Positions 7,922-50,953 of a DNA stretch of 64,000 nt are shown here, one piece after another. The stretch is from a virus. Taxonomy: Duplodnaviria > Heunggongvirae > Uroviricota > Caudoviricetes. How positions within the stretch are numbered: position 1 is the first letter of the stretch; each line of letters starts with the position of its first letter. Location: IMG/VR virus record IMGVR_UViG_3300041411_000102, positions 1 to 64,000 of that record. One strand, given 5' to 3'. The notes under the pieces are model-generated. The model had not been told where the DNA came from. It was given only the letters and a program-made list of their open reading frames with translations, and searched no databases. A program made the translations under genes and the position numbers.

Positions 7922-8266
7922 TCAAGGGTAACGAATGTATTTAACTTTCTTAGATTTCTCCACAGTCTTTTGACGAGCTGCTTCTTGTTTATCATTCTCT
8001 ACCAGCTCAAGCAATCTGTCAATAATTTTCTTTGCTCGTTCTAGTGAGCCGCGTGGCCCGAATTCATTAGCAAACGCTTCTCTGCTCATGCTATCAGTGT
8101 AGCCCATCCAATCAAGCTTCAAACGTGCAGGATACCAAGACAAAGAATCCTGCCAGACATGTACTTCGGCTGTGTATTCTGTGATGTCAACACCATCGTA
8201 TGTCTTTGTAGTTTGTTTAATTCGTGTTTTCATATTACCACCATAATGATTTATATTTCTGCCCAA
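7922..8266 (-). CDS. Hypothetical protein
   Basis: Tracked ORF in a co-directional block. Confidence 0.5.
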   Translation of the reverse strand: MGRNINHYGGNMKTRIKQTTKTYDGVDITEYTAEVHVWQDSLSWYPARLKLDWMGYTDSMSREAFANEFGPRGSLERAKKIIDRLLELVENDKQEAARQKTVEKSKKVKYIRYP

Positions 8267-8699
8267 AAAGACTCAAACCTTCTTGAACTCTCTTCTCATG
8301 TACATCCATATCAGCATAATAACGAGCTTTCTCTTCCTGATTATCACATTCAATTGTGTAAGGAACTGAGTAACCTTCTTTGGCAATGCCGCCCTCAACA
8401 GGAACCATCTCAAGACTAAAGCTATAGTCTCTCATATCGGGCTCTTTATTCTCAAAAGCATACATCATTTTCTTGATGTCGTCTAGCCAATTTTGTACTT
8501 CTTGATCTGTGACATCAATATCAGGATTAGCACAATATTCACTCGGGACACCTAGACACTTTCCTTCTTTGTTACGTTTCTCCAATACTTCGTGGAAACG
8601 TAAGAGTCCTGCGTAGATGATTGGGGACAGGGTGTGGTCAAGACTGTATGTGTCTCTGTAGCCAAATTGCCACTTACCCTTTCGTTTGATTACTGACAT
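8235..8699 (-). CDS. Hypothetical protein
   Basis: ATG at 8699 gives a TAATG overlap with the upstream gene. The longer tracked start at 8735 overlaps that gene. Confidence 0.5.
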   Translation of the reverse strand: MSVIKRKGKWQFGYRDTYSLDHTLSPIIYAGLLRFHEVLEKRNKEGKCLGVPSEYCANPDIDVTDQEVQNWLDDIKKMMYAFENKEPDMRDYSFSLEMVPVEGGIAKEGYSVPYTIECDNQEEKARYYADMDVHEKRVQEGLSLFGQKYKSLWW

Positions 8700-44490: not shown

Positions 44491-45333
44491 GTGAAGAAGA
44501 AACGCATCAAATACTGTAACTCAACAGATATCGGAGCCATTGGCAAGACAGATCAAGGTAGTTTTGAGGTTGTCAGTCAGGACAAACCTCGTTGGTACAC
44601 TGTTAAATTTCTGGTGACCGGCTACACTAAAAGTGTTCGAAAAGATTACCTTGTTGAAGGTTCAATGACTGACCCCTACTTCCCGAGCAAATATGGTGTT
44701 GGATATCTTGGGGAAGGTCCATATAAGACAACATCGGACATTGTGAGGGCTTGTGGCACAAAATACAAAGCTACACCAGAGTACAGTCGCTGGAATTCAA
44801 TGATGGGGAGGTGCTATCAGTTAGCCAACACCGAGTATCTTAGATATGGTGCATTAGGGACTTATGTTTGTGAAGCGTGGCACAACTTCCAAGTGTTTGC
44901 TAAGTTCTTTGATGACAATTGGACAGAAGGATTAGACCTAGATAAAGACATTCTAGTTTATGGTAATAAATGCTATAGTCCAGAAACATGTGTGTTTGTG
45001 CCTAAATATATTAACAATTTATTAGTGCATACTAAGAATGTTTTGAATGGTTATCCTGTTGGTGTCTATTACCAGAAACAGGGACCAAACATGGTTAACC
45101 CGTTGAGGAAGCCTTTTACATCCGAGATTGACAAGAAGAACCTAGGATTTTACGTTACTCCACAGGAAGCCCATAAAGCTTGGCAAGAAGCAAAGGCAGA
45201 CAAAATCTTCTCATCTGTCAATAGGTATTCTGAAGAAAAATTCTTTGACTCGAGGGTTGCGGATGCGCTACTATCTAAAGCATGGAAGCTGAAGACAGAT
45301 GCTCAGCTTGGGATTGAAACAGTAAGATTGTAA
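44491..45333 (+). CDS. Homing-endonuclease-like protein, paralogue 4, GTG start
   Basis: 'GLDLDKDILVYGNKCYSPETCVFVPKYINNLLV'. GAGGAAAGAG RBS. Confidence 0.55.
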   Translation: MKKKRIKYCNSTDIGAIGKTDQGSFEVVSQDKPRWYTVKFLVTGYTKSVRKDYLVEGSMTDPYFPSKYGVGYLGEGPYKTTSDIVRACGTKYKATPEYSRWNSMMGRCYQLANTEYLRYGALGTYVCEAWHNFQVFAKFFDDNWTEGLDLDKDILVYGNKCYSPETCVFVPKYINNLLVHTKNVLNGYPVGVYYQKQGPNMVNPLRKPFTSEIDKKNLGFYVTPQEAHKAWQEAKADKIFSSVNRYSEEKFFDSRVADALLSKAWKLKTDAQLGIETVRL

Positions 45334-49072: not shown

Positions 49073-49100
49073 AGCCCTTCATTTGAAGGGCTTTATTGTG
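49073..49100 (+). terminator. Rho-independent terminator
   Basis: AGCCCTTC-atttg-GAAGGGCT followed by TTATTGTG. Confidence 0.6.
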
Positions 49101-49200
49101 CCTGAAATAAATGTATTTAATTGAAAATAAAGCTTTACGGGGCAGATGAATCTGGATAGAATGGACACATCAGAACGAAACATTAATTAGGAAGAAGATC

Positions 49201-49380
49201 ATGAAAGACCAAATTGCTAAAGAACTTAACCTTATAGGTCTTGAAGAACACATTCAAATCATTCGTGTACAAGACAGTGAGGTTGACTTTGTTGTCAATG
49301 GATCTACCCACTACTATGCTAAGACTAACAAGGCTGGTACAAAGATCCTTAAGAATTCTATCCGCAGGAACTTCTCATGA
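49201..49380 (+). CDS. 59 aa small protein
   Basis: AGGAAG RBS. ATGA-coupled to the next ORF. Confidence 0.4.
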   Translation: MKDQIAKELNLIGLEEHIQIIRVQDSEVDFVVNGSTHYYAKTNKAGTKILKNSIRRNFS

Positions 49381-49526
49381 TCATAGGTATTAGCAACGGA
49401 AAGCAATACACCCTTTACAAGTATGATGGTCTGTCAGGCTTGTGTGACCTTGCAGAGTACAGTTTCCCTCAATGGTGTAGGTTTGAAAAGATCTATGTTG
49501 ATGGTGTATTAATGGAATCTGAATAA
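49377..49526 (+). CDS. 49 aa small protein, the last gene of the plus block
   Basis: ATGA coupling. Confidence 0.4.
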   Translation: MIIGISNGKQYTLYKYDGLSGLCDLAEYSFPQWCRFEKIYVDGVLMESE

Positions 49527-49547
49527 ACATCCTAGCAGGTTATTATA

Positions 49548-49568
49548 ACGTCCCACATTGTGGGACGT
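49548..49568 (+). terminator. Hairpin at the end of the plus block
   Basis: Perfect 8 bp stem ACGTCCCA-cattg-TGGGACGT with weak T-richness after it. Confidence 0.45.
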
Positions 49569-50246
49569 AGTTGTTCCTAGTCACTGGAAAGACTCTCACA
49601 ATCTCCTTTCAAATCTCTAGCCTGTAAAATCCCCTCTAAGCCTTATCAGTTCTAGTGTACACATGTACTCTCAGTTGGTGATAAGTGGCTAATAGTCCTC
49701 TGTCAAGCAATGGGCGAGACATCTCTGATGTTAAGCCTGATGTCGAATCCCTCCAACTTCCCCTGTAACGATTCCTTTCCACCCATCCCAACCACCAGCT
49801 CTTAGCCAATCCTTTCACACAATCCTCACAATACATTGACTTAAGCTAGTGAAGTGTGCTAGTTGTGCAACACAGATTATTATGGTTGACATACACCGGT
49901 CAGTATGAGTGGCTAGAGGTACATGACAGGTTATTGATAGCTAGTGTGTATGAGGTAACATTTAACGAATATCCGATTATACGCAATGTGAATTATGGTA
50001 ACGCTCAGTGATGAGTAATAACTATCGATCAGTGACTTGGCACAAGGTATGCATAGACTACTTGCTAGTTGTTTAATACTATTAGACTAGGAGTGATGAT
50101 AGATAGAATTGTCTGGATATTTTAACGGCTATGTGATAGATAGGGTGACGGGGTAGTCACGAGTTAAGCACCCAATATCGATATCCAGTTGTTTTGAAAG
50201 TATGAACCCTTATAAATAAAGGCTTTCAGATATTCTAGGCACAGAA
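49569..50246. repeat. Large non-coding region with short direct repeats and a 90 nt G-poor tract rich in C and T
   Basis: No credible ORF on either strand. 'TGATAGATAG' occurs twice, 'AGTGATGA' three times, and (C)TAGTG five times. 49741-49830 has almost no G on the + strand. Confidence 0.5.
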
Positions 50247-50282
50247 AAATAGGAGTCACTAATGAAAGCTGACTCCTAAAAA
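50247..50282. terminator. Bidirectional terminator closing the minus block D
   Basis: aaaaat-AGGAGTCA-loop11-TGACTCCT-aaaaat. Confidence 0.7.
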
Positions 50283-50297
50283 TAGGGGGTTGGAAAT

Positions 50298-50861
50298 TTA
50301 CACTGTTGGAAGAAGGTGTTTCCAAGTAAAGCCATCAAGGATATTACGAATACAACCCTCACTTACACCATAAGTTTCTCTTAGTTTCTTTCTAGTACCA
50401 TGTTCATTAGCTGCATACAGTCTACGAATCTCTATTACTTGAACTTCTGTAAGCTTTGATAGGTGATGTGTCTCACCGGATGGTGTAGGAAGTCTGTTAC
50501 CTATCTTTGGATTCTTCCAATAGTGTTCTTTATTCTCCTTCTGTGTAACCCACTCTAAATTAGACATCTTGTTATTTGTTGTGTCTAGGTCTTTATGATT
50601 CACTTCCAGTTCATCCATCATAGGATTAGGTTGAAAGGTCAGCATGACTAATCTATGTACAAGTAGTGACTTACGCTTTCTAGGTTCAGGATAAAGCTGT
50701 ACTAGAATATAACCTGTTGTGTTAGGGCTACCTTTAAGGATTATTTCTTCTCGTCTGTAAGCCTTTACTAAACTCTTAACGCGTCCCATGTTACTAACTT
50801 GGTAGCCGGGATACCCTTCAATGTCTCTCCATATTTCTTCTTGAATCATTTCACACTCCAC
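50298..50861 (-). CDS. HNH homing endonuclease (HNH_3/NUMOD-type)
   Basis: 'HRLVMLTFQPNP...VNHKDLDTTNNKMSNLEWVTQKEN'. Confidence 0.75.
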   Translation of the reverse strand: MECEMIQEEIWRDIEGYPGYQVSNMGRVKSLVKAYRREEIILKGSPNTTGYILVQLYPEPRKRKSLLVHRLVMLTFQPNPMMDELEVNHKDLDTTNNKMSNLEWVTQKENKEHYWKNPKIGNRLPTPSGETHHLSKLTEVQVIEIRRLYAANEHGTRKKLRETYGVSEGCIRNILDGFTWKHLLPTV

Positions 50862-50953
50862 CGCACGTATATAATATTATCAGAAATAAAGTGCACCCTA
50901 GTAAGATGTAGGTGTGCACCGCACTGTTAGTTTAATAGAACATGAAAGTGCAG

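Follow-up and report, generated by a model that had tools for sequence, protein, structure and literature searches.

Terminal repeat predicted in the convergence zone

The 64,000-nucleotide (nt) stretch of viral DNA analysed here, called the window (positions 1 to 64,000 of IMG/VR record IMGVR_UViG_3300041411_000102), contains a 770-bp non-coding zone at 49527-50297, where a plus-strand gene block and a minus-strand gene block converge. Comparison with related phages indicates that this zone is very probably the concatemer junction of a linear phage genome, i.e., a single merged copy of a short direct terminal repeat (DTR) together with its flanking signals. The predicted DTR spans 49734-50165 (432 bp), with packaging predicted to be T7-like, and would be present once in the window because the two end copies were merged in assembly. 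The predicted virion DNA would begin with AGCCTGATG... at its left end and finish with ...CACGAGTT at its right end. The initial annotation of the window had offered origin iterons, a packaging site and a structured non-coding RNA as possible identities of the zone; it is the packaging site that is borne out, by an architecture and by boundary motifs homologous to experimentally defined DTRs of related phages.

Judged by its sequence, the window phage is a distant relative of the Pseudomonas phages KIL3, phiPsa374, and Adele, and its DNA polymerase shares 57% amino acid identity with those of KIL3, PHB09, phiPsa300, and related phages. Terminal repeats have been reported for several phages of this group. 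PhiPsa374 has a linear genome with a 526-bp DTR, the DTR of PaP1 is 1190 bp as determined by run-off sequencing, and DTRs of 1165 and 628 bp have been described for Adele and for vB_PseuGesM_254 (OR575930), the packaging of the latter being called 'T7-like'. The DTRs of phiPsa300, Adele, and vB_PseuGesM_254, defined by PhageTerm (523, 1165, and 628 bp, respectively), served as references. All three start with YTA^AGC and end with TATTTY-N38-39-GTT^AAR, the caret marking the end of the repeat:

phiPsa300: DTR start ...TTTACTA^AGCGAAGC; DTR end ...CATTGGTT^AAACACCTC
Adele: DTR start ...CTGATGTTA^AGCGACAGC; DTR end ...CGTGGTT^AAGTAGC
vB_PseuGesM_254: DTR start ...GTTATGTTA^AGCCCACC; DTR end ...CTCTGTT^AAACACCTCGGATAGAAATCCAG

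The zone carries motifs identical to these experimentally defined ends:

49728-49736, plus strand: left boundary motif ATGTTA^AGC; repeat predicted to begin at base 49734
50118-50168, plus strand: right boundary element TATTTT-N39-GTT^AAG; repeat predicted to finish at base 50165

To these sequences we could add 12 distinct uncultured relatives, below called the clade (L001, L002, L004-L008, L010, L013, L016, L025, and the partial L018), which were found in IMG/VR and JGI metagenomes with a DprA-like protein and a neighbouring protein of 190 amino acids as anchors; no clade relatives were found in 185,579 bacterial and archaeal genomes. The window has a single copy of the left motif ATGTTAAGC (49728-49736), and the reference loci have it nowhere but at the DTR starts annotated for Adele and vB_PseuGesM_254. 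The right pattern, TATTTYN{38,40}GTTAAR, likewise occurs once in the window and once in each clade locus containing the zone, while in the loci of phiPsa300, Adele, and vB_PseuGesM_254 it is confined to the annotated DTR end. When the 12 clade and three reference sequences were aligned on the cuts, the alignment was gap-free, with the TATTTY box 38-39 nt before GTT^ in all 15.

Homology to a defined terminal region was also detected by profile searches. A right-block profile built from the clade of the window only matched the right junction of vB_PseuGesM_254 (nhmmer, E=5.5e-6 in 46 kb) and aligned GTT^AA with the final base of its DTR; window 50110-50190 is the stretch with detectable homology to this right end. 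Of the block profiles, only the one named right2 reaches vB_PseuGesM_254, and the left, mid, and right1 profiles gave no match to phiPsa300, Adele, or vB_PseuGesM_254. The left block matches vB_PseuGesM_254 through the short motif and the terminator tail only. The zone has the gene-poor convergent layout, the left boundary, the right boundary, and the homology to a defined terminal region that mark membership among Vandenendeviridae-like DTRs.

Several sequence records break at the same places. The KIL3 record ends with ...GTTGTTGTT and begins with AAGTAAG, which corresponds to a break at GTT^AAGT with TATTTT 38 nt upstream, and GTACTA^AGCGAAACG is found 1132 bp before the record end; the KIL paper makes no statement on the choice of record ends. 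A phiPsa374 contig in IMG/VR starts with AGCGAAGCG and has the right motif at 526. Within the clade, metagenome contig JACCDR012057751.1 (L018) starts exactly at ^AGCCGG and aligns to ...GGCTA^AGCACAGG of L006. A scan of IMG/VR with the right pattern returned further contigs of 85-98 kb with a YTA^AGC partner 500-1300 nt upstream; since by a rough estimate about eight matches are expected by chance, some of these are not real.

The layout of the reference genomes agrees with that of the window. The annotated DTR of phiPsa300 is non-coding, with plus-strand genes reading to the right end and minus-strand genes to the left end, so that joining the ends through one repeat copy gives a convergent gene-free zone exactly as in the window. 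The terminal repeat of Adele, vB_PseuGesM_254, and KIL3 likewise sits in a gene-poor zone, with small plus-strand genes as one flanking block and minus-strand genes as the other. Over their 628 bp the end copies of vB_PseuGesM_254 do not differ, and the gene immediately beside the repeat encodes a putative endonuclease, a position taken in the window by the HNH gene. A gene of ~590 nt lies inside the repeat of Adele (PaAdele_001), KIL3 (gp0166), and PaP1 (gp157). In and just beyond the right half of the vB_PseuGesM_254 repeat (L033:300-760), at least 10 copies of (T)TCATCATG were observed; these words form a true repeat array at the end of the genome, with nothing comparable in the window.

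Some observations weigh against a concatemer junction at this site or against its exact boundaries. Homology is the only basis on which the ends of the window phage are placed, and on the left side the motif is short and the profile of the block fails to match the reference phages. The Sanger run-off ends of PaP1 are displaced upstream from the motifs, by 7 nt at the right and 10 nt at the left (L054:1-20; L055:420-440, 1590-1616; HQ832595), which means that the exact cut position is uncertain by several bases or differs between phages. PaP1 belongs to the same genus as Adele, for which the ends come from PhageTerm; either the cut sites of these two phages differ or one of the methods is imprecise. 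Long IMG/VR contigs of the clade run unbroken through the site, as expected for collapsed repeats, and hence give no support. A terminase gene was not among the window's ten large open reading frames (ORFs) that were scanned; the large terminase gene is probably located outside the 64-kb window.

Conservation of the zone in uncultured relatives

An ORF-poor zone of 700-1400 nt occupies the equivalent convergent junction in all relatives, and the order of the conserved blocks is identical across the 12. Profiles made from nine sequences also found the blocks in the three relatives outside that set (L013, L016, and L025), and had no further matches in the window. The distance from motif to motif in the relatives ranges from 371 to 1003 bp. 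The only invariant words in the family of the window are TAAGC (49732-49736, within CTGATGTTAAGCC), found in 12 of 12 relatives, and ATATTT...GTTAA (50117-50122 and 50163-50167). Outside the predicted repeat, conservation extends into both flanks:

49569-49733, plus strand: left flank with conserved blocks CCTCTAAGCCTTATC, TCTAGTGTACA, and GACATCTCTGATG leading to the predicted left cut site (alignments)
50166-50249, plus strand: right flank with AAGCACC..ATATCGATATCCAG (family consensus AAACACCTCAGATAGATATCCAG), CCCTTATAAATAAAGGCTTTCAG, and ATATTYT (alignment)

The right flank is shared with vB_PseuGesM_254, where AAACACCTCGGATAGAAATCCAG follows the DTR end. By analogy with the sequences required beside the T7 repeat, these two flanks are the best candidates for a terminase recognition sequence.

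The genes on either side of the zone vary. Besides the window, L008 is alone in having the HNH gene, L002 has an unrelated HNH gene, and in the other relatives the conserved promoter-like block is followed by small genes of other kinds. As the flanking genes turn over, the non-coding zone is the constant part, situated between two variable cargo slots. The zone itself can take up genes, as relatives accommodate insertions of 300-600 nt in its middle, and a small plus-strand gene lies inside the predicted repeat in L004, L005, and L013. In L005 the inserted gene is at 8012-8305 (minus strand in the locus, plus in the orientation of the window), with a homologous stretch in L013 and a shorter ORF in L004. 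The insert gene of these three relatives has a good sigma-70 promoter (TAGACA-16-TATACT) and a terminator of its own, and a gene inside a terminal repeat would be present in two copies per virion. The window has a promoter candidate in the same part of the zone:

49934-49961, plus strand: weak candidate sigma-70-type promoter TTGATA-16-TAACAT, pointing toward the right boundary and followed by no gene

A promoter at the equivalent position was detected in only about half of the relatives, e.g., TTGATA-16-TAGCAT in L001. The authors of the KIL3 genome annotated three plus-strand promoters within the equivalent region.

Coding potential and RNA structure

The initial annotation found nothing in 49527-50297 that codes convincingly, and the present analysis agrees. 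The longest stop-free runs in the zone are 49-69 codons, at positions and on strands that are not common to the relatives, and the three small ORFs of the zone have no match in Pfam or PHROG. These runs, together with the turnover of cargo genes on both sides, might be taken to suggest that the zone is made up of decayed genes (pseudogenes) or of small protein genes that were missed. We regard this as the least probable of the explanations considered, as no open frame is common in position or strand to the 12 relatives and tblastn gave matches of just 14-19 residues that track nucleotide identity only. Moreover, conservation in the zone takes the form of short blocks separated by alignment gaps that are not multiples of three. 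No conserved ORF was found in the zone. A set of 50,697 phage records, searched in near and distant modes with the nucleotide sequence of the zone, gave no match.

Patchy conservation over ~750 nt without an ORF, and the weak plus-strand promoter candidate at 49934-49961, could also be expected if one strand were transcribed into a long structured non-coding RNA or carried a degenerate tRNA-like gene. This explanation is hardly tenable in view of the results obtained. The failure of the initial annotation to fit a tRNA was repeated with ARAGORN, which found no tRNA or tmRNA in the window. No Rfam family was detected at either the gathering or a permissive threshold (best match, E=1), and single sequences folded no better than shuffles on both strands, with minimum free energy z-scores of -0.75 (plus) and -0.03 (minus). 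RNAalifold on 12-13 homologues of the right and left blocks gave no consensus pairs besides those of one minus-strand terminator, the left block giving none, and relatives accept gene insertions of 300-600 nt in mid-zone. A helix closing on GTTAAR (GGTG with CACC, GGGG with CCCC) was suspected at first and was rejected, as the pairing partners proved inconsistent sequence by sequence. The transcriptome papers on PAK_P3 and PAK_P4 describe no comparable non-coding RNA; their small RNAs are located elsewhere, and the sole relevant remark concerns an untranscribed 'genome terminus'.

The one structure recovered closes the minus-strand block:

50250-50278, minus strand: intrinsic terminator of the minus block, AGGAGTCA...TGACTCCT with ATTTTT after it on the minus strand (RNAalifold)

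Of its seven pairs, five show compensatory double changes among the 13 sequences, and a conserved CCCCCT precedes it on the minus strand. A terminator of the minus block had been proposed in the initial annotation as bidirectional. The terminator stands as a covarying hairpin; it functions, as read from its sequence, on the minus strand only, since AAAAAT follows the hairpin on the plus strand.

Short repeats and the C-rich tract

The zone contains few short repeats. TGATAGATAG was present in two exact copies as initially reported (50097 and 50134) and in a third copy matching at 90%, the spacings being 162 and 37 nt; AGTGATGA, for which three copies had been claimed, was found twice. The count of about five for (C)TAGTG(T/A) held, with five CTAGTG or CTAGTT words in the zone, all on the plus strand, against ~0.6 expected from the density in the whole window. 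TTAAGC is also in excess, with three plus-strand copies against ~0.3 expected; as candidate 'iterons' these were set aside, two of the three copies being the repeat boundaries.

Short direct repeats in a large conserved non-coding region could be iterons for a phage initiator at a replication origin, or the G-rich minus strand of 49741-49830 could give a transcript priming an R-loop. An origin is nevertheless highly improbable. The two exact 10-mers and the 90% copy are irregularly spaced and sit in alignment columns that are variable among relatives; without conservation or a regular array, the term 'iteron-like' is not justified, and the repeats are better described as few, short, and lineage-specific. 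The GC content of the zone stays between 0.35 and 0.52 with no AT-rich unwinding dip, and no initiator-like gene adjoins it, the neighbours being the HNH endonuclease, genes for unknown proteins, and the DprA-like protein. Upstream of the G-rich stretch the minus strand has no conserved promoter, and in vB_PseuGesM_254 the replication origin was predicted elsewhere, at 70.5 kb. Nor would an origin account for the location of the invariant motifs at DTR ends.

The left edge of the predicted repeat has an unusual composition, and the closing signals of the plus block lie upstream of it:

49741-49830, plus strand: C-rich, G-poor tract (6 G, 39 C) with the semi-conserved word CYGTAACGATTCCTTTMCA, at the left edge of the predicted repeat
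49073-49092, plus strand: terminator hairpin (terminator scan)
49548-49568, plus strand: intrinsic terminator with the stem ACGTCCCACA and TGTGGGACGT, closing the plus block (terminator scan)

The two hairpins agree with the initial reading that the plus block ends in two terminators, and the base counts confirm the almost G-free tract described there. At the position of 49548-49568, an 8-10 bp hairpin with different stem sequences is found in 12 of 12 relatives. The hexamer AGCAGG at 49533-49538, 8-10 nt 5' of this hairpin, is kept in 11 of 12 relatives despite differing upstream genes. The tract is the most extreme 90-nt stretch of the whole 64 kb with respect to C minus G. Counts over the first 100 nt of the predicted DTR are 5-10 G and 26-41 C throughout the 12 clade members, i.e., the composition is kept while the sequence is not, and an exact 29-mer of the tract had no match in IMG/VR. 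The strand with its 3' end at the left terminus would be the G-rich one.

The composition is that of a Rho-utilisation (rut) site, i.e., an unstructured, untranslated stretch of at least ~80 nt with C well above G; the tract contains no conserved ORF. The zone could therefore be read as one of Rho-dependent termination, in which the tract acts as a rut site on untranslated read-through RNA from the plus block and would halt transcripts before they cross the junction and enter the minus block in antisense. The strongest C excess of the window (39 C and 6 G in 90 nt) in untranslated sequence, ~170 nt downstream of a plus-strand terminator with a poor U tail (AGTTGTT), is consistent with this, and so, as suits a rut-like element, is the retention of composition rather than sequence across all 12 clade members. 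As an identity for the whole zone we consider it rather unlikely, because four reference phages of the same terminal architecture lack the tract at the left edge of the repeat, so that it is not needed for the shared function, and because the conserved blocks and invariant motifs elsewhere in the zone would be left unexplained. Rho-dependent termination could instead be an added function of the tract within the repeat. Its absence from the reference phages makes the tract clade-specific and places it outside the shared packaging machinery; both rut activity on plus-block read-through and a role at the DNA end are possible.

Gene context

The genes of the window include those for a tail fibre, ribonucleotide reductase, thymidylate synthase, an exonuclease, a primase/helicase, a PhoH-like protein, and the DNA polymerase. 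The features next to the zone are as follows:

about 32.6 kb to 49526, plus strand: block of small genes converging on the zone
50298 to beyond 64000, minus strand: block converging on the zone
50298-50861, minus strand: HNH homing endonuclease with NUMOD4 and HNH_3 domains, adjoining the zone on the right

The gene for the DprA-like protein is located on the right side, two genes beyond the HNH gene. A second, separate HNH homing endonuclease gene is found at 44491-45333, so that both lie within 6 kb of the terminal region; KIL3 also has several such genes. The whole 64 kb is free of tRNA genes as judged by ARAGORN, while KIL3, phiPsa374, PaP1, and vB_PseuGesM_254 have clusters of 11-12; the cluster of the window phage may sit in the part of the genome beyond the window or be absent.

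On the right side of the zone, the promoter-like block GGGTGCACTTYATTTCTGATAATATTATATACGTGCRGTGGAGTGTG lies at 50862-50953 (minus strand) and is also found at L007:6575-6680, L008:6562-6665, and L010:5545-5650, with two or three further (G)TGCAC(T)TT words ahead of it. Its cargo varies: the window and L008 have the HNH endonuclease there, L007 has two small ORFs, and L010 has one; L004 likewise has a small ORF at this position. The site behaves as a variable gene slot beside the left genome end. A comparable situation is seen on the other side, where the last two plus-strand genes of the window (ORFs 49201-49380 and 49377-49526) have a counterpart in none of the relatives, pointing to a second cargo slot adjoining the right genome end. 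A promoter-like site at 49134-49162 is placed downstream of the 49073-49092 terminator and before these two ORFs. AAGTGCAC, tested as a recurrent promoter word, was present in a single copy in the window.

Proposed packaging and significance

In the virion, the minus block (from 50298) would form the left end and the plus block (to 49526) the right end, each reading endward. That both blocks read toward the genome ends would explain the convergent terminators. By analogy with phages of the T7 type, replication would yield head-to-tail concatemers with one repeat copy per junction. The terminase would then recognise conserved sequence in and beside the repeat, for which the TATTTT box at its fixed distance and the flank AAACACCTCAGATAGA.ATCCAG are candidates. 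Cutting at both boundary motifs, with DNA synthesis duplicating the repeat, would leave one copy at each end of the packaged genome. That the window phage itself is cut at these motifs is inferred, as is the cutting chemistry.

As a kind of feature, a short DTR with its junction is ordinary and already known; the zone is an instance of it in a new uncultured lineage. What may be of wider interest is the boundary code, YTA^AGC and TATTTY-N38-39-GTT^AAR with a flank of the AAACACCTC type, which may be shared by at least five genera of myophages of ~85-100 kb and of which we found no description in the literature searched. We tentatively propose, as a linked pair and with considerable doubt, that this code is the recognition and cutting signal of the terminase and that the C-rich composition of the clade tract, rather than its sequence, is under selection. 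The tract could be a Rho-dependent insulator keeping convergent transcription off the junction, or a DNA-end element. If the code is such a signal, physical genome ends could be read from sequence alone. If the motifs are general, this would extend to a family that includes candidates for phage therapy and biocontrol (Pakpunavirus, Otagovirus, and Flaumdravirus), and they would point to the DNA that is read by the terminase. For the uncultured lineage, the predicted ends at 49734 and 50165 would allow correct linearisation and annotation of its genomes. A false lead would also be removed, the zone being, on the present evidence, neither a new RNA nor an origin but most probably the meeting place of linear genome ends.

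Comparison with known systems

The closest likeness is to vB_PseuGesM_254, which also has a gene-free terminal zone between plus and minus blocks and an endonuclease gene first beside it. Its ends resemble those predicted for the window, with ATGTTA^AGCC on the left and GATATTTT-N39-GTT^AAACACCTCGGATAGAAATCCAG on the right, and its plus-strand terminator tail GGCTTTCTTGTGTCTGTA is shared with clade member L007. In contrast, the repeat interior and the flanking genes cannot be aligned, and there is essentially no synteny of flanking genes with the window, of which only two tested ORFs match weakly. Its repeat is longer (628 bp compared with the predicted 432 bp), contains the TCATCATG array, and lacks the C-rich tract at the left edge.

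Convergent flanking blocks are also shared with the Otagovirus phages phiPsa374 and phiPsa300 (repeats of 523-526 bp), the Pakpunavirus phages Adele and PaP1 (1165-1190 bp), and the Flaumdravirus phage KIL3. The repeats of this group start with CTA^AGCG or TTA^AGCG and end with TTATTTT-N38-39-GTT^AAACACC or GTT^AAGTAGC, and GGTTAAGTAGC is identical in the group and clade member L008. Outside the boundary motifs, however, they have no nucleotide homology to the window, and whereas Adele, PaP1, and KIL3 have a gene of ~590 nt in the repeat, the predicted repeat of the window is gene-free.

The tract resembles known rut sites in being C-rich, G-poor, untranslated, ~90 nt long, and preceded by a weak intrinsic terminator. 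Function is what defines a rut site, whereas the tract is known by its sequence and is located at a predicted DNA end, where a role at the level of DNA is equally possible.

T7 has an exact, non-permuted terminal repeat of 160 bp, of which one copy is present at each concatemer junction together with flanking processing signals. Site-specific cuts are made at both boundaries and the repeat is duplicated, which requires conserved sequences just outside it; promoters lie near the junction. The genes of T7 share a single orientation, leading away from the left end, and processing depends on the RNA polymerase of the phage itself. The window has no sequence relation to T7, and its flanking blocks both read toward the ends. 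The likeness, drawn by analogy, would lie in the organization of the predicted junction, with a short terminal repeat, cutting at its boundaries, and conserved flanks.

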